Below, in pieces: positions 1,826 through 32,798 of a stretch of DNA of 64,000 nucleotides. Origin of the DNA: Escherichia coli (GTDB taxonomy: Bacteria; Pseudomonadota; Gammaproteobacteria; Enterobacterales; Enterobacteriaceae). The notes beneath the pieces were generated by a model. That model saw nothing but the letters and a program-made list of their open reading frames with translations, did not search any database and was not told the DNA's origin. The stretch lies in assembly GCF_003334385.1 (NCBI RefSeq), contig NZ_QOWN01000015.1; one strand, given 5' to 3'. Made by a program: the position numbers and the translations under genes. Positions within the stretch are counted from its first letter, which is position 1. Each line of letters starts with the position of its first letter.

Positions 1826-4174
1826 ATGCTGAGTTTATACGAAAAGATAAAGATAAGGCTGATAATTTTATTTTTATTGGCAGCACTGTCATTTATTGGT
1901 CTTTTTTTCATCATTAACTATCAACTGGTATCGGAGCGCGCGGTAAAACGTGCCGATAGCCGCTTTGAACTTATTCAGAAAAACGTTGGCTATTTCTTTA
2001 AAGATATTGAACGTTCGGCCCTGACATTAAAGGACTCACTGTATTTATTAAAAAATACAGAGGAGATTCAACGCGCCGTGATTCTTAAAATGGAAATGAT
2101 GCCATTTTTAGACTCGGTGGGACTGGTACTTGATGATAATAAATATTATCTTTTTTCGCGGAGGGCGAATGATAAAATCGTTGTTTATCATCAGGAACAA
2201 GTAAATGGACCGCTTGTCGACGAGTCAGGGCGGGTTATTTTTGCCGATTTTAACCCATCGAAACGACCGTGGTCGGTGGCTTCAGATGACTCTAACAACA
2301 GCTGGAATCCGGCATACAATTGCTTTGATCGTCCGGGTAAAAAATGTATCTCTTTTACGCTACACATCAACGGCAAAGATCACGATTTGTTAGCGGTGGA
2401 TAAAATTCATGTCGATTTAAACTGGCGATATCTGAACGAGTATCTTGATCAAATCAGCGCTAATGATGAAGTTCTATTTTTGAAACAAGGCCATGAGATC
2501 ATTGCCAAGAATCAACTCGCTCGTGAAAAACTGATTATTTATAATAGCGAAGGTAATTATAATATTATTGATTCTGTCGATACTGAATATATCGAAAAAA
2601 CATCAGCGGTGCCAAACAACGCATTATTCGAAATCTATTTTTATTATCCTGGCGGTAATTTATTGAACGCATCAGATAAACTTTTTTATCTGCCGTTTGC
2701 GTTCATTATTATCGTATTGCTGGTGGTTTATTTAATGACCACTCGTGTGTTCCGTCGGCAATTTTCTGAAATGACAGAGCTGGTTAATACGCTGGCGTTT
2801 TTGCCTGACTCAACGGATCAAATCGAGGCTCTGAAAATTCGTGAAGGCGATGCGAAAGAGATTATCAGCATCAAAAATTCGATCGCGGAAATGAAAGATG
2901 CCGAAATTGAACGGTCAAATAAATTGCTCTCACTGATCTCTTACGATCAGGAAAGTGGTTTTATTAAAAATATGGCGATTATTGAGTCTAACAATAATCA
3001 GTATCTGGCTGTGGGGATCATCAAACTGTGTGGTCTGGAAGCCGTGGAAGCGGTGTTTGGTGTTGATGAGCGCAATAAAATCGTCAGGAAATTGTCTCAG
3101 CGAATTGCCGAGAAATATGCGCAATGCTGCGATATCGTGACATTCAATGCCGATCTCTATTTACTTCTGTGTCGGGAAAATGTACAGACATTTACCCGTA
3201 AAATAGCGATGGTAAACGATTTTGACAGCAGCTTTGGCTACCGCAATCTGCGCATCCATAAGTCTGCCATTTGTGAACCTTTGCAGGGGGAAAACGCCTG
3301 GAGTTACGCAGAAAAACTGAAACTGGCGATTTCCAGTATCCGTGACCATATGTTCTCAGAGTTTATTTTCTGTGATGACGCGAAACTCAACGAAATAGAA
3401 GAGAATATCTGGATTGCGCGTAATATTCGCCATGCAATGGAAATTGGCGAACTATTCCTCGTCTATCAACCGATCGTTGATATTAACACCCGCGCCATTC
3501 TGGGCGCGGAGGCGTTGTGCCGTTGGGTGTCTGCGGAGCGGGGGATCATTTCACCGCTGAAGTTCATTACCATTGCTGAAGATATCGGGTTTATCAATGA
3601 GCTGGGTTATCAGATTATTAAAACGGCAATGGGTGAATTCAGACATTTTAGTCAGCGTGCGTCGCTGAAGGATGATTTCTTACTGCATATTAATGTTTCG
3701 CCCTGGCAGTTAAACGAACCACACTTTCATGAGCGTTTTACCACCATCATGAAAGAAAATGGCCTGAAGGCGAACAGCCTCTGTGTTGAGATCACTGAAA
3801 CCGTGATCGAGCGAATTAATGAACATTTTTATCTCAATATTGAACAACTGCGTAAACAAGGGGTACGGATATCGATTGATGACTTTGGCACCGGTTTGTC
3901 AAACCTGAAACGTTTTTATGAAATTAATCCAGACAGCATAAAGGTGGACTCGCAATTCACCGGCGATATTTTCGGTACTGCGGGAAAAATTGTGCGCATT
4001 ATTTTCGACCTGGCACGCTATAACCGGATCCCGGTGATTGCGGAAGGCGTAGAGAGCGAAGACGTTGCGCGCGAATTAATCAAATTAGGATGTGTTCAGG
4101 CTCAGGGGTATCTGTACCAGAAACCCATGCCATTCTCCGCCTGGGATAAAAGTGGAAAATTAGTAAAAGAGTAG
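1826..4174 (+). CDS. pdeI: c-di-GMP phosphodiesterase PdeI (YliE), EAL domain with N-terminal membrane/periplasmic region
   Basis: ORF 1748..4174 trimmed to ATG at 1826 (782 aa); C-terminal EAL domain with intact EAL motif (GAEALCRW). Confidence 0.88.
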
Positions 4175-5556: not shown

Positions 5557-6882
5557 TTAAACCCGGCTACCCCACAAATCGTACTCATCGGCGTGCTCGA
5601 CTTTCACACGCAGGATATCACCCGGCTTAACGTTGGTTTCACCATTGAGATAAACCGCGCCGTCGATTTCCGGTGCATCTGCCATGCTGCGACCAATCGC
5701 GCCTTCTTCGTCCACTTCGTCGATAATCACCAGAATTTCACGGCCCACTTTCTCTTGCAGGCGCTCGGCGGAAATCTGCTGCTGCAGCTGCATGAAACGG
5801 TTCCAGCGTTCTTCTTTAACTTCTTCCGGAACCTGGTCAGGCAGGGCATTGGCGTCTGCACCTTCAACCGGGCTGTATTTAAAGCAGCCAACGCGATCCA
5901 GACGCGCTTCTTTCAGGAAGTCGAGTAGCATCTGGAAATCTTCTTCTGTCTCGCCAGGGAAGCCGACAATAAAGGTTGAGCGTAGGGTCAGTTCCGGGCA
6001 GATTTCGCGCCACTGTTTGATGCGCGCCAGTTGGCGATCTACAGAACCCGGACGCTTCATCAGTTTGAGAATGCGCGGGCTGGCGTGCTGCAACGGAATG
6101 TCCAGATACGGCAGGATTTTGCCTTCTGCCATCAGTGGGATGACGTCGTCCACATGCGGATAAGGGTAAACGTAGTGCAGACGTGTCCAGATCCCCAGTT
6201 TCGATAACTGTTCGCACAGGCTGACCATGCTGGTTTTTACCGGCTCGCCGTTGTGGAAGCCAGTACGATGTTTAACATCAACGCCATAGGCGGAAGTATC
6301 CTGCGAGATCACCAGAATCTCTTTAACGCCCGCATCTACCAGACGTTTCGCTTCACTTAACACTTCGCCAATCGGACGGCTCACCAGGTCGCCGCGCATA
6401 GACGGAATAATGCAGAAGGTGCAGCGGTGATTACAGCCTTCAGAAATTTTCAGATAGGCATAATGACGCGGCGTCAGTTTCACACCTTGTTCTGGCACCA
6501 GGCTCAGGAATGGGTTGTGTTTCGGTTTTGGCACGTAGTGATGAACGTGCTCCAGAACCTGCTCATAGCTATGAGGCCCGGTGATTTCCAGCACTTTCGG
6601 GTGGACTTCGCGGATCTGATCTTCTTTTGCCCCCAGACAACCGGTCACAATAACCTTGCCGTTTTCATTCAACGCTTCACCAATGGCTTCCAGTGATTCT
6701 TGTACCGCGCTGTCAATAAAGCCGCAGGTGTTGACGATCACCATGTCCGCATCGTCATAGCTCGGTACCACGTCATAACCTTCAGTGCGGAGTTCGGTGA
6801 GAATACGCTCTGAATCAACAAGGTTTTTCGGACAGCCAAGGGAAACAAAGCCGATTTTCGGCTGGGGAGTTACTTTGCTCAT
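5557..6882 (-). CDS. rimO: Ribosomal protein S12 methylthiotransferase RimO
   Basis: ORF 441 aa; radical-SAM CxxxCxxC motif (CNHRCTFC), MiaB-like. Confidence 0.95.
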
Positions 6883-28492: not shown

Positions 28493-28542
28493 AAAAGCCG
28501 CATGTGCGGCTTCAGATTGCTGACAAAGTGCGCGTTGTTTAT

Positions 28543-28641
<99 letters not shown>

Positions 28642-28690
28642 ATTTTACCTTTGTCATCAGTCTCAAGCCGCGGTTGCGGCTTTCTGAATC

Positions 28691-29422
28691 TTACTGTGGG
28701 AACCACTGGTCACTGATTTTTTGATAAGTACCGTCAGCTTTAATTGCTGCCAGCGCGTTATTCAGTTTTTCCAGCAGGGCTTTGTTATCCGGACGTACAG
28801 CGATGCCCAGGCCGGTGCCAAAATATTGCGGATCGGTCACTTTCTCAGTAGCAACACCAAGTTGTGGATTGGTTTTCAGCCATTCGTTTACCACCGCTGT
28901 GTCACCAAATACCCCATCAATACGACCATTTTTCAGATCGATAAAGGCATTCTGATAACTGTCATAAGAGACAGTTTTCACTTCCGGGTGCTGATCCTGA
29001 ATATATTTCTGGTGCGTAGTACCGTTTTCCATCCCAATACGTTTGCCTTTCAGATCGGCAAACGTTTTGTAGGTATCTTTTTTGGCAATCACGACGGCTG
29101 AGTTTTCATAGTAGGGCGTGGTAAACGATACCTGTTTGCTACGCTCCGGGGTGATATCCATACCGGAGATTACGGCGTCATATTTTCTGAATTTCAGGGA
29201 CGGGATCAGGCTGTCGAACGCGTGATTAGTAAAAGTACATTCTGCCTGCATTTGTTTGCACAAGGCTTTTGCCAGATCGATATCAAAGCCGACAATCTCA
29301 TTATTAGCACCTATAGATTCAAAGGGTGGATAGGTGGCTGAAACGCCAAAATTGATTTTCTCTGCGGCAGAAGCACCGAAAGTAAAGGAAGCAAGTAAAG
29401 CGGCAAGAACTAACTTTTTCAT
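28691..29422 (-). CDS. artJ: Arginine ABC transporter periplasmic binding protein ArtJ
   Basis: ORF 28691..29473 trimmed to ATG (243 aa); paralogue of ArtI. Confidence 0.92.
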   Translation of the reverse strand: MKKLVLAALLASFTFGASAAEKINFGVSATYPPFESIGANNEIVGFDIDLAKALCKQMQAECTFTNHAFDSLIPSLKFRKYDAVISGMDITPERSKQVSFTTPYYENSAVVIAKKDTYKTFADLKGKRIGMENGTTHQKYIQDQHPEVKTVSYDSYQNAFIDLKNGRIDGVFGDTAVVNEWLKTNPQLGVATEKVTDPQYFGTGLGIAVRPDNKALLEKLNNALAAIKADGTYQKISDQWFPQ

Positions 29423-29532
29423 GATGGAACTCCCGTCTGTCAATCTTATGATTTTTGGCCGTGTCTGCGGCATGGGATAACAATGCCATCAAGTGAATTT
29501 ATATGCAATAAACATGATTAAATAATTTAAAT

Positions 29533-29569
29533 GAAATAAAAAAGACGGACAACTTAGTGGGTTGTCCGT
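29533..29569 (-). terminator. Rho-independent terminator between artM and artJ (end of artPIQM transcript)
   Basis: Perfect 10-bp stem GACGGACAAC/GTTGTCCGTC, 7-nt loop; on minus strand followed by TTTTTTATTT. Confidence 0.8.
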
Positions 29570-29594
29570 CTTCATTATAAGAATTTATGCACTA

Positions 29595-29683
29595 TGTAGG
29601 CCGGATAAGGCGTCCCCGCCGCATCCGGCACAGGCACCGTGCTGATGTCTGATGCGACGCTGGCGCGTCTTATCAGACCTACA
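29595..29683. repeat. REP/BIME element: two REP copies in opposite orientation
   Basis: TGTAGGCCGGATAAGGCGTCCCCGCCGCATCCGGCA at 29595-29630 and GATGCGACGCTGGCGCGTCTTATCAGACCTACA at 29651-29683. Confidence 0.85.
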
Positions 29684-29712
29684 AAACCCCCCGGCGAATG
29701 TACGCAGCCACA

Positions 29713-30381
29713 TTAATTTCGCCGTTCGAATGCCAGCGCTTTGCGCTCGATCAGACGCATCATCAGCGTCAGCAGGCCGTTAACGACCAGGTAAATAATC
29801 CCTGCCGCACCGAACACCATTACATCGTAGGTGCGTCCGTACAACAACTGGCTGTATCCCATCACTTCCATCAGCGTAATGGTGTATGCCAGAGAGGTAC
29901 TTTTGAATACCAGCACCACTTCGTTGGAATAAGAAGAGAGCGAGCGTTTAAAGGCATACGGCAGCAGGATCGCCAGCGTATCTTTTTTGCTCATTCCCAG
30001 GGCGCTACAGGACTGCCACTGACCTTCCGGGATCGCACGAATTGCACCGTAAAACAGCTGCGTGGTATACGCCGCACTATTCAGCGACAACGCAATCAGC
30101 GCACATAACCACGGTTCTGACAACAAATGCCACAGTGCCGGATACTCCTGCAAAGTCGGAAACTGGCCCGGCCCGTAATAAATCAGGAAGATCTGCACCA
30201 GCAGCGGCGTACCGGTAAACAGCGTGATATAACCCCGCACCAGCCACACCAGCACCGGCGTTTTCAGCGTCAGGATGATGGTAAAAATCAATGCCAGAAT
30301 CAGTGCCACAATCAGCGAGGCAACGGTTAGCGTCAGGCTGGTGTGTAGCCCTTTCATCAGTTCGGGTAAATACTCAAACAT
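29713..30381 (-). CDS. artM: Arginine ABC transporter permease ArtM
   Basis: ORF 222 aa. Confidence 0.93.
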   Translation of the reverse strand: MFEYLPELMKGLHTSLTLTVASLIVALILALIFTIILTLKTPVLVWLVRGYITLFTGTPLLVQIFLIYYGPGQFPTLQEYPALWHLLSEPWLCALIALSLNSAAYTTQLFYGAIRAIPEGQWQSCSALGMSKKDTLAILLPYAFKRSLSSYSNEVVLVFKSTSLAYTITLMEVMGYSQLLYGRTYDVMVFGAAGIIYLVVNGLLTLMMRLIERKALAFERRN

Positions 30382-31097
30382 TAGCTGGGCCTCCGCTCAA
30401 AACGTGTCGCGCGCAGGTCAATGCGTTTGAGAATGTACTGACTGAGCAGGGTGATCACCAGGTAAATCGCCGCCGCCACAATGTACCAGGTAAATGGTTC
30501 CTGGGTACGAGTAGCGATGCTTTTTGTTTGCAGCATTAAATCATTCACACTAATCAAACTGACCAGCGCGGTATCTTTCAGCAGCACCAGCCACTGGTTA
30601 CCGAGGCCAGGCAGCGCATGACGCCACATCTGCGGCATCACCAGACGGAAAAAGATAGCCGATTTCGACAGCCCCAGCGCCTGACCAGACTCCCACTGAC
30701 CCACCGGCACCGCTTTCAACGCGCCCCGAAGCGTTTGCGAGGCATAGGCGGCATACAGCAGTGACAGAGCGATGACACCACAAAGGAACGGGCTAACGTC
30801 GAAGTCCTCAATGTCCATCTGCACTGGGATCTGCACGAACCCAAGATTGATAGTGAAGCCATCCGAAAGCGTCAGCAGCAGCTGCGAGGAGCCAAAATAG
30901 ATAAACAGCACCACCAGAATTTCTGGCAGGCCACGCAGAATGGTTACCAGCGCTGAACCTGCCCACGCGACAGGACGCCATTTTGCCGACTCCCATACCG
31001 CAAAGAACATCGCCAGCGCCAGCCCGACAATCAATGCACAAACGGCAAGGCCGACGGTCATCCCGGCGGCGCTTGCTAAAGGAAAAAATTCATTCAT
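30381..31097 (-). CDS. artQ: Arginine ABC transporter permease ArtQ
   Basis: ORF 238 aa; 1-nt overlap with artM. Confidence 0.93.
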
Positions 31098-31103
31098 CAG
31101 GAA

Positions 31104-31835
31104 TTACTTCTGGAACCATTTGTTGTAGATGGTTTCGTAAGTGCCATCTTTCTTCACTTTTTCCAGCGCAGTGTTGAGTTTCTGCTGCAGCTCAGTGTTG
31201 CCCTGACGTACCGCGATGCCGAGGCCAGTGCCGAAGTAATCTTTATCGGTCACTTTGTCGCCCACCGCCGCCAGTTTCGGGTTATCTTTCAGCCACTCAG
31301 TGACCACTGCGGTGTCACCGAAGACGCCGTCGATACGCCCGTTTTGCAGATCCAGTTTTGCGTTCTGGTAGCTGTCATACGGAACGGTAGTGATTTCCGG
31401 GTGCTTATCCATAATGAATTTCTGGTGTGTCGTCCCGTTCTGTACGCCGACTTTTTTGCCTTTCAGCTGATCAACACTGGTGTATTTGCCTTGCTGACCC
31501 ACAAACAGGGCAGAGTTGTCATAGTACGGGGTGGTAAACAGCACCTGCTTTTCACGCTCCGGAGTGATATCCATGCCCGCCATCACGGCTTCTACGCGAC
31601 GGAATTTCAGGCTTGGGATCAGGCTGTCAAACGCCTGGTTAGAGAAAGTGCAGGTTGCATCAATCTCTTTACACAGCGCTTGTGCCAGGTCGACGTCAAA
31701 ACCAACGATCTGGTTGTTTGCATCAATCGATTCAAACGGAGGATAGGAGGCTTCGGTAGCAAAACGAATGGTTTCGGCAGCTGTGGCGGAAAGACTAAAA
31801 CCTGCAATTAACGCGGCAATCAGAACTTTTTTCAT
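31104..31835 (-). CDS. artI: Arginine ABC transporter periplasmic binding protein ArtI
   Basis: ORF 243 aa with signal peptide. Confidence 0.93.
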   Translation of the reverse strand: MKKVLIAALIAGFSLSATAAETIRFATEASYPPFESIDANNQIVGFDVDLAQALCKEIDATCTFSNQAFDSLIPSLKFRRVEAVMAGMDITPEREKQVLFTTPYYDNSALFVGQQGKYTSVDQLKGKKVGVQNGTTHQKFIMDKHPEITTVPYDSYQNAKLDLQNGRIDGVFGDTAVVTEWLKDNPKLAAVGDKVTDKDYFGTGLGIAVRQGNTELQQKLNTALEKVKKDGTYETIYNKWFQK

Positions 31836-31852
31836 TGTTGTTATCCCGAATC

Positions 31853-32581
31853 TTAGTGAGAGAGATAGTTTTTAAATGCTTCGGTTTGCGGCTCGGTAAA
31901 GCAGCTCGCGTCGCCTTGTTCTACGATATGACCATTTTCCATATACACCACTCGGCTGGCGGTTTTACGCGCCACTTCAACTTCGTGGGTGACGATCACC
32001 TGGGTAATATTCGTTTCTGCCAGCTCACGAATGATGCTGACGATTTGTGCCGTAATTTCCGGGTCCAGTGCGGCGGTCGGTTCATCGAACAGCAGTACCT
32101 GCGGTTCCATCATCAACGCACGGGCAATAGCAACACGCTGCTGCTGACCACCAGAAAGATGCAGCGGGTAACGATCGCTATAAGGTTTGAGACGCAGACG
32201 TTCCAGCAGTTTTTCTGCACGGGCCAGCGCCTGATCTTTACTCAACCCCAGTACACGGCAGGGCGCTTCAATCAGGTTTTGCTGCACGGTCAGATGCGGC
32301 CACAGGTTGTATTGCTGAAACACCATGCCAACGTTACGACGCAAATCGCGAATCGCTTTGTCAGAGGGTGTTTTGGTGAAATCGAAATGGTTGCCTACAA
32401 TGTTGAGCGTACCGGAGCGCGGCATCTCAAGCAGATTGAGTACACGCAGCAGCGAGCTTTTACCCGCGCCGCTGGGGCCAAGTAACACCAGCGTTTCGCC
32501 CTGTGGGCAATCCAGCGTGATATCGAACAGCGCCTGATGCGCGCCGTAGAAGCAATTAATGCCGTTTAATTGAATACTCAT
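31853..32581 (-). CDS. artP: Arginine ABC transporter ATPase ArtP
   Basis: ORF 31853..32680 trimmed to ATG (242 aa); Walker [18 protein letters not shown]. Confidence 0.92.
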
Positions 32582-32798
32582 TGACACTCGTATACTGGCA
32601 GTCTGATAGCTATTGAGGTCGAAGATAGTACCTTTGACAGAATAATTATGCAATATTTCTGCTTTAAAAGTTAAAAGCAAAGCGCATTATTCAATAAACA
32701 TAGCACAAAATAACGGGGGCGGTGGTCGGCGAGCATAAATGTCGGCATTCCTCACGAAATGCCGGACAATTTACGGGGTTTATTGGTTGATCAAGGCG

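Follow-up and report, generated by a model that had tools for sequence, protein, structure and literature searches.

The window analyzed in this work is a 64,000-nucleotide stretch of Escherichia coli DNA (contig NZ_QOWN01000015.1), and the system under study is the arginine ATP-binding cassette (ABC) importer encoded by artP-artI-artQ-artM and artJ, a locus that is well studied and already known in E. coli K-12. One ATPase gene and two distinct permease genes are combined in one operon, which is the make-up of polar amino acid transport (PAAT) importers, and on the minus strand these genes follow one another directly or overlap. All five Art proteins pass the cut-off of the curated NCBIfam equivalog bearing their own name (Table 1). 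The binding proteins ArtI and ArtJ are of the SBP_bac_3 type; both have an N-terminal MKK, a hydrophobic stretch and then AAE, corresponding to a signal peptide, and PF00497 is precomputed on homologues of these proteins. Nearly all of 80 surveyed loci from Enterobacteriaceae, Yersiniaceae and Pectobacteriaceae share the gene order ybjP-artP-artI-artQ-artM-artJ and a convergent rlmC. These loci, taken from one genome per species, were found via very specific peptide patterns and are thus confined to Enterobacterales. The features that had been described from the sequence alone are all present in the window.

Table 1. Genes and regulatory or repeat features of the art locus, in coordinates of the window
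Feature	Description	Position	Strand	Length	Basis
artP	ATPase subunit of the ABC importer	31853-32581	-	242 aa	Open reading frame and annotation; NCBIfam ArtP equivalog, 500 bits (cut-off 369)
artI	In-operon periplasmic binding protein	31104-31835	-	243 aa	NCBIfam ArtI equivalog, 537 bits (cut-off 522)
artQ	Permease subunit, HisQ-type	30381-31097	-	238 aa	NCBIfam ArtQ equivalog, 467 bits (cut-off 277)
artM	Permease subunit, HisM-type	29713-30381	-	222 aa	NCBIfam ArtM equivalog, 424 bits (cut-off 248)
artJ	Separately transcribed binding protein	28691-29422	-	243 aa	NCBIfam ArtJ equivalog, 535 bits (cut-off 510)
artP control region	ARG box 32637-32654 (3 mismatches); candidate partner box 32658-32675 (4 mismatches, by eye)	32637-32675	-		
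BIME in artM 3' UTR	Two inverted REPs	29595-29632 and 29648-29683	.		Motif, fold and Rfam naRNA4
Rho-independent terminator of artPIQM	13-bp stem, 7-nt loop, T tract	29531-29573	-		
artJ operator	ARG box at 29492 to 29509, ATTGCATATAAATTCACT (2 mismatches); weaker candidate partner box 29513-29530 abuts the terminator T tract	29492-29530	-		
artJ/rlmC 3' region	Second BIME (REPs 28541-28577 and 28611-28645) inside a 35-nt inverted repeat	28494-28683	.		
BIME, bacterial interspersed mosaic element; REP, repetitive extragenic palindrome; UTR, untranslated region

The two binding proteins form the close pair of the locus. The sequence-only reading had described them as near-collinear, and they align end to end without a gap at 65% identity (343 bits, E 2e-125). 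When the polar amino acid ABC systems of E. coli K-12 (art, his/argT, gln, glt, tcy and yhd) were compared all against all, ArtI and ArtJ proved to be each other's closest paralogues and reciprocal best matches; HisJ and ArgT came next at 158-176 bits, and an upper limit of 169 bits is also given for HisJ, ArgT, TcyJ and GlnH. In a tree of 20 species from the three families together with the E. coli paralogues, the ArtI and ArtJ clades are reciprocally monophyletic (bootstrap 94 and 100) and echo each other's species branching, which points to one duplication before the divergence of the families, without later homogenization. The overall DNA identity of artI and artJ is 67%, and that of their third codon positions 45%. 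The artI/artJ duplication is old, with synonymous sites near saturation. Gene conversion between the two genes was considered and rejected, as there are no long identical tracts (the longest run is 14 nt) and the identity profile is even. Of the ancient duplication followed by specialization that had been suggested for the locus, the artI/artJ part holds, resting on the closest-paralogue relationship, the third-position divergence and a set of clade-fixed residues described below; the artM/artQ part does not.

The permeases ArtQ and ArtM share 30% identity (99 bits, 17 gap positions). Within E. coli, ArtQ is ranked closest to HisQ (134 bits), followed by TcyL and then by ArtM, and the scores of ArtM against TcyL (115 bits), HisM (102 bits) and ArtQ are near-tied. 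With the curated profiles, HisQ is the runner-up for ArtQ, HisM is the runner-up for ArtM, and the partner permease of the Art system ranks fourth each time. The Vibrio orthologues introduced below rank more clearly, with HisQ next for the Q subunit and HisM next for the M subunit. In the permease tree, an ArtQ+ArtM clade obtained 9% bootstrap and an ArtQ+HisQ clade 60%. These rankings, together with the presence of both Q and M in a Vibrio locus that has a single binding protein, indicate that the Q/M pair predates the split of the Art and His systems. This permease pair is an ancient feature of the whole family; the I/J pair arose much later. Assigning artM and artQ to the same local duplication event is contradicted by the clade bootstrap, by the higher score of HisQ than of ArtM against ArtQ and by the Vibrio locus. 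Nor is the layout tandem: the order is P-I-Q-M-J rather than I-Q-J-M or I-J-Q-M, and no head-to-tail repeat of a binding protein plus permease is present.

Distant relatives were searched among 1.84 billion cluster representatives, with subsequent cluster and contig look-ups. Among the matches listed in a word-indexed search with ArtI (at least 120), all had at least 84% identity and none was an outgroup. By cluster look-up, one distant single-domain relative was found to be an arginine binding protein of Vibrio vulnificus. On the chromosome of V. vulnificus YJ016, the ATPase, binding-protein and two permease genes are followed by unrelated genes, and a second binding-protein gene was looked for and not found within 6 kb; the same four-gene art order occurs beside a divergent argR on a TARA ocean metagenome contig. 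The Vibrio products correspond one to one to ArtP (64% identity), ArtI/ArtJ (58/54%), ArtQ (58%) and ArtM (59%). These single-binding-protein artPIQM loci thus resemble the E. coli locus in their order (ATPase, binding protein, Q, M) and in 54-64% orthology for all four components, and differ from it in lacking the second binding-protein gene downstream of artM. According to a published survey, the art operons of Pasteurellaceae likewise have a single binding protein (PMC2228313). In a neighbour-joining tree, the Vibrio and TARA proteins branch outside the ArtI+ArtJ clade with 64% bootstrap; one rogue, probably chimeric sequence (P0132, 275 aa from a 1.1-kb contig) had spoiled the bootstrap splits and was left out of the final tree. 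The single-binding-protein artPIQM is likely the pre-duplication state.

Comparison of 72 ArtI and 80 ArtJ sequences revealed 18 positions that are fixed differently between the two clades. By alignment, two of these appear to correspond to ligand contacts of the lysine-arginine-ornithine-binding protein (LAO), namely D11 (S28 in ArtJ, E28 in ArtI) and L117 (E132 in ArtJ, Q132 in ArtI). A further LAO contact, S69 (S86 in ArtJ, mostly A86 in ArtI), also differs between the clades and is not counted among the 18, since it is only 86% conserved in ArtI. Altogether, the pocket states are E28/F111/Q132 in ArtI and S28/V111/E132 in ArtJ. The single-copy outgroups share the three ArtI states, and the arginine-specific STM4351-type protein of Salmonella has the ArtJ states. 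Judged from the outgroup states in the alignment, the ArtI pocket looks ancestral and the ArtJ pocket derived, which would fit both the in-operon position of ArtI and the high arginine affinity of ArtJ, for which a Kd of 0.4 uM is given in the literature. In an arginine-specific treponemal homologue, the glutamate equivalent to LAO L117 forms a bidentate salt bridge with the guanidinium group, its mutation raises the Kd ~5000-fold, and the ligand is also contacted by a serine that precedes the stacking position by three residues (bioRxiv 10.1101/350942). ArtJ S28 and E132 match this serine and this guanidinium-binding glutamate of arginine-specific binders.

We tentatively propose, at somewhat short of even odds, that ArtJ became an arginine specialist after the duplication by relocation of an acidic residue from position 28 to position 132 (E28S, Q132E, F111V), with ArtI and the single-copy relatives retaining the ancestral state. 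The ligand of ArtI is disputed, being given as arginine and ornithine (PMC6640053), as weak and non-specific (PMC2228313) or, in RefSeq, as "putative". If the proposal is correct, this disputed ligand would reflect the specificity that the system had originally, which would be wider than arginine alone or differ from it, and an exchange of two or three pocket residues should interconvert the specificities of ArtI and ArtJ. The clade-fixed pocket difference and its polarity therefore offer a modest lead, with mutagenesis as a test for the ArtI ligand. The closest solved structure to ArtJ is that of Salmonella STM4351 (PDB 2y7i; 316 bits), which is arginine-specific. An STM4351-like protein of Salmonella enterica (P0123) is 70% identical to ArtJ, joins the ArtJ clade with 85% bootstrap and shares 14 of the 18 ArtJ-diagnostic residues, S28 and E132 included; in Salmonella, STM4351 is hence nearer to ArtJ than ArtI is. 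STM4351 is a third paralogue encoded elsewhere. Its representative cluster holds Salmonella sequences only, and one paper lists the protein as absent from E. coli. Intestinirhabdus alba likewise has a third ArtJ-like paralogue (P0290, 58% identity to ArtJ); such additional copies in some Enterobacteriaceae indicate that the binding-protein family kept duplicating after the I/J split.

REPs are imperfect palindromes of ~35 nt with a GTAGG...CTTATC tail that are extragenic and repeated genome-wide. The REP tail motif CTTATCMGRCCTAC has four copies in the window, compared to 0.04 expected, and all of them are intergenic and flank artJ. Two inverted copies lie between artM and artJ (29596-29609 on the minus and 29669-29682 on the plus strand) and two between artJ and rlmC (28563-28576 on the plus and 28612-28625 on the minus strand), and the REP arms are alike between the two sites. 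These REPs are presumably of the Y and Z2 subtypes. A 4.4-kb query spanning the art locus matches at least 40 places per E. coli genome. Read on the minus strand from artM, the junction consists of a 29-nt spacer, a REP (29683-29648), a 15-nt linker, an inverted REP (29632-29595) and a hairpin (29573-29541); beyond the T tract of the hairpin follow a weaker candidate box and, directly after it, the ARG box (29509-29492). Six of the 13 pairs of the hairpin are GC, and its 3' side continues into TTTATTTCAT. In a predicted RNA fold of the artM 3' region (z = -5.4), two REP hairpins and the terminator hairpin are formed, the latter in both the minimum-energy and the centroid fold. Motif count, Rfam match and hairpin with T tract thus substantiate the REP/BIME elements and the terminator that had been noticed between artM and artJ; the terminator had been placed at 29533-29569, which overlaps the real hairpin and is off by a few bases.

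Rfam naRNA4 (RF02564) matches the artM-artJ BIME at 29599-29679 on the plus strand with 75.5 bits (gathering threshold 59.5 bits), the best strand being antisense to art transcription. The Rfam "sRNA" families naRNA4 and ES036/CssrF, the latter matching the BIME downstream of artJ, apparently model REP/BIME sequence. The artM-artJ element resembles REP325/naRNA4 in passing the naRNA4 gathering threshold and in its predicted folding into two REP hairpins. However, REP325 is a 12-unit array of alternating Z2 and Y units and the artM-artJ BIME a single pair, and no nucleoid or HU role is implied for it. Around 40% of E. coli REPs lie between tandem genes, and the artM-artJ BIME is alike in being an extragenic element of a 3' UTR; such REPs are described as local elements that, depending on context, stop RNA decay or influence termination (bioRxiv 10.64898/2026.03.23.713779), which would likely be their role here as well.

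The taxonomic spread of these junction elements was surveyed in 72 artM-artJ junctions from Enterobacteriaceae, Yersiniaceae and Pectobacteriaceae. REP motifs were found in the Escherichia loci, and three Citrobacter have one copy each. In the other genera, the gene order is unchanged and the spacers, which lack REPs, measure ~155-340 bp; those of Yersinia and Siccibacter are longer, and a Brenneria has one of 61 bp. A terminator-like hairpin with a T tract follows 20-60 nt past the artM stop codon in most genera, and in Escherichia the BIME sits between the artM stop codon and the terminator hairpin. Because the arrangement, the terminator and the ARG box are distributed far more widely than the REPs, the REPs are younger than the arrangement and cannot have brought it about. 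Given these REP-free junctions of the same order, the suggestion that REPs mediated or stabilized the arrangement is not supported.

Separate transcription of artJ beyond the terminator, as assumed in the sequence-only reading, agrees with the hairpin, with a conserved operator and with published work (PMC6640053, PMC2228313). A sigma-70 promoter drives artJ and another one artPIQM; the two are repressed by ArgR, and Lrp acts as a repressor at the artP promoter only (PMC6640053). Separate promoters are also mentioned in a passage of PMC2228313 that cites Wissenbach et al. We scanned for the 18-bp ARG box consensus TNTGAATWWWWATTCANW. With at most 3 mismatches, an ARG box was found upstream of artJ in 76 of 77 loci, compared to 7 of 77 shuffled controls, and its distance to the start codon is fixed per family (-87 in Enterobacteriaceae, -137 in Yersinia, -92 or -95 in Pectobacterium). 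The artJ gene's own regulation is old. ArgR operators comprise two boxes 3 bp apart that are bound by hexameric ArgR. The candidate partner box of the artJ operator, identified by eye, has 5 mismatches; binding of ArgR to a two-box operator has been reported (PMC6640053). In the artP control region, for which ArgR and Lrp binding is published (PMC6640053), the pair of boxes overlaps a sigma-70-like site (32674..32645) found by a consensus scan.

Individual loci depart from this pattern. Unique among the 77, a Brenneria sp. locus (L078) has a 61-bp spacer (5936-6001) with neither a terminator-like hairpin nor an ARG box (best match 4 mismatches), so to judge from its sequence artJ may have rejoined the operon in this locus and be co-transcribed with it. 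In Raoultella planticola (L053, 1-6000) and Yersinia similis (L079, 1-6000), artJ and its ARG box are intact and lie more than 6 kb from artPIQM. The Raoultella insert is a sugar-acid island with genes for a GntP-family transporter, a PdxA-like dehydrogenase, a D-threonate-kinase-like protein, DeoR and KpsF-GutQ, and the Yersinia insert contains an IS110-family transposase fragment, an HflC/K-like gene and others.

Taken together, the locus is read as an artPIQM-artJ importer in which an ancient Q/M pair was joined by a later artI/artJ duplication and, late in Escherichia, by REPs; we give this reading a probability of about 85%. Its oldest event would be the formation of the Q/M permease pair before the Art and His systems split. 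The artI/artJ duplication would have followed in Enterobacterales once this lineage had parted from the Vibrio-type single-binding-protein loci, most simply through a tandem duplication of I-Q-M and loss of the distal Q'M'. By such a route, the new copy would have landed 3' of artM beyond the operon terminator, with its own ArgR-repressed promoter. The BIMEs are best seen as late Escherichia-specific insertions into the artM and artJ 3' UTRs; their role, if any, would be that of a local 3'-UTR element (RNA-decay block or termination modulator), with no part in the duplication. Co-duplication of the promoter was considered and rejected, the 123 nt upstream of artJ and the 139 nt upstream of artP not being significantly similar.

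Several other histories were weighed. A single tandem duplication of a binding-protein-plus-permease module could have produced both pairs at once, with REPs mediating or stabilizing the junction; both pairs are indeed detectably homologous, and REPs and a terminator are present where artM meets artJ. We regard such an origin as extremely improbable, given the unequal divergence of the two pairs (65% and 30% identity), the nearer relationship of ArtQ to HisQ and of ArtM to HisM or TcyL with the 9% ArtQ+ArtM clade, the presence of a Q/M pair already in the single-binding-protein Vibrio and TARA loci, the order I-Q-M-J that is not head-to-tail, and junction REPs that are absent outside Escherichia and a few Citrobacter. 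Alternatively, artJ may be a diverged artI-type gene acquired horizontally and inserted beside the operon. Its location past the terminator with its own promoter would suit an inserted gene, as would its separation from artPIQM by islands or insertion sequences in R. planticola and Y. similis, and horizontal transfer was considered for lapT, a stand-alone artJ-like gene of Mannheimia haemolytica (PMC2228313). However, ArtJ and enterobacterial ArtI are sisters to the exclusion of the Vibrio-type proteins, the two clades mirror each other's species branching, and the position adjacent to artM and convergent to rlmC is kept in three families, all of which makes an acquisition very unlikely.

The age of the artI/artJ duplication is the more delicate matter. 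It could predate the split of Enterobacterales and Vibrionales, with artJ subsequently lost in Vibrio, Pasteurellaceae and other lineages. Bootstrap support is only 64% for the node that keeps the Vibrio-type proteins out of I+J, and the Vibrio and TARA proteins are slightly nearer to ArtI than to ArtJ (58% versus 54% identity; 9-10 versus 4 of the 18 diagnostic sites). Yet an ArtI+Vibrio clade appears in only 6% of bootstraps, ArtI-like states in the outgroup are equally expected if ArtI merely keeps ancestral residues, and several independent losses would be needed, which leaves the older date unlikely. The low support of this node, with an older duplication and loss of artJ elsewhere as the less likely alternative, is one of the points that weigh against the preferred scheme. 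The sampling covers three Enterobacterales families and Vibrio-type outgroups rather than Pasteurellales, Morganellaceae or other early Enterobacterales. The grouping of ArtM with HisM is weak in the tree (30% bootstrap) and comes mainly from the bit-score and profile rankings. The route of duplication and deletion leaves no detectable trace, and the best match between the artJ and artP upstream regions is a 14-nt AT-rich segment (score 23) that 3.6% of shuffles equal. A sigma-70 consensus scan gave no match at threshold upstream of artJ, where the promoter rests on the literature. Finally, the numbering of the LAO contacts is in part our assumption. Only Y14, F52 and L117 are confirmed in a paper (bioRxiv 10.1101/350942).

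The closest known analogue is argT-hisJQMP of E. coli and Salmonella, the LAO and histidine system, a locus of the same family in which one QMP2 translocator is served by two binding proteins, HisJ and ArgT, that are 68-69% identical (65% for ArtI and ArtJ). As at art, one binding-protein gene belongs to the operon and the other is a separately regulated unit (PMC6640053). In contrast to artJ, which lies downstream of the permeases past a terminator and has a sigma-70/ArgR promoter, argT is located directly upstream of hisJ and has a sigma-54/NtrC promoter. The his and art binding-protein duplications are independent, each pair being monophyletic with 100% bootstrap. The art locus, its two transcription units, the ArgR/Lrp regulation and the similarity of ArtI and ArtJ have been published since 1993-1995 and later refined (PMC6640053). 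Nothing in the locus departs from established knowledge of these systems, and its importance beyond housekeeping is small. The useful correction is that the locus combines two duplications, far apart in age, and not a single one, and that the REPs are recent Escherichia-specific passengers of 3' UTRs rather than architects of the arrangement.

Unusual domain architectures were also encountered among the binding proteins. In Candidatus Regiella insecticola (P0131/P0307), a 496-aa "ArtQ", from a cluster of 14 members covering several assemblies, is 59% identical to ArtJ over residues 1-247 and from its sequence appears to be an ArtI-ArtQ fusion. The artI-artQ gap in E. coli is 6 bp, and loss of the stop codon could yield such a fusion. 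Fusions of a binding domain to a permease are known from Gram-positive GlnPQ-type systems. Many other proteins, including P0124-P0128, are ~1000-2990 aa long, contain four to nine tandem ArtJ-like domains and outrank many single-domain relatives by summed score; these are presumably multi-domain sensor or transporter fusions.

The convergent region between artJ and rlmC contains the second REP pair. The arms of the enclosing inverted repeat (28494-28528 and 28649-28683) are 83% complementary, and each carries an AAGCCGC-N4-GCGGCTT hairpin. As a whole, the 190 nt form one long imperfect palindrome, with a predicted fold of z = -7.6. On the minus strand, the rlmC-side arm reads as the artJ terminator (28513..28494). 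The linker of this BIME (28577-28619, plus strand) is matched by ES036/CssrF (RF02751) at 42.2 bits, above gathering, and contains an IHF-like site identified by eye, TTCAATACATTG. In Citrobacter amalonaticus, a single AAGCCGC-type hairpin lies in a 44-bp spacer, and some E. coli lineages do not have the artJ-proximal copy. Among 5426 complete E. coli genomes, 1702 have the K-12 form of the region, ~1460 a 93%-identical variant and ~2260 no match. It looks as if a bidirectional terminator had been duplicated in inverted orientation across the palindromic REP pair, for example by template switching.

This junction is variable elsewhere too, with inserts of 2.2-4.1 kb in ~28 of 60 loci. The artJ-rlmC spacers of Buttiauxella and Enterobacter sp. 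(L048, L054, L064, L071) contain palindromic or tandem repeats that differ between genera, for instance CCCTCTCCC...GGGAGAGGG palindromes, which reach up to four copies in Buttiauxella sp. A111. In Yersinia aleksiciae (L077), the spacer contains a run of ~12-nt units similar to CCCAAAGGGATA / CCAAAGAGATAT, flanked by long direct repeats. Lineage-specific extragenic repeats seem to have landed at this site between artJ and rlmC time and again.

Relative to MG1655 (NC_000913.3, 871,154-935,153), the window is collinear, with no indels and 16 scattered single-base differences, two of which fall within the 4.4 kb of the art locus, itself collinear. At least 80% of the 4.4-kb query is found in 5401 of the 5426 complete E. 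coli genomes, which places the locus in the species core; the best matches among them have two mismatches and a bit score of 8117. The substitutions lie at 3096, 7074, 15917, 18298, 19348, 19860, 24396, 30806, 32397, 39979, 43645, 44222, 44902, 48745, 56889 and 62087, are evenly spread, and half of them are transversions. Those in the art operon alter conserved residues, ArtQ N98D and ArtP A62V, and these alleles occur in none and in one of the 5426 complete genomes, respectively. With this pattern, the 16 substitutions do not look like natural polymorphism but like errors of sequencing, mutagenesis or noise that was introduced; the finding is unaffected.

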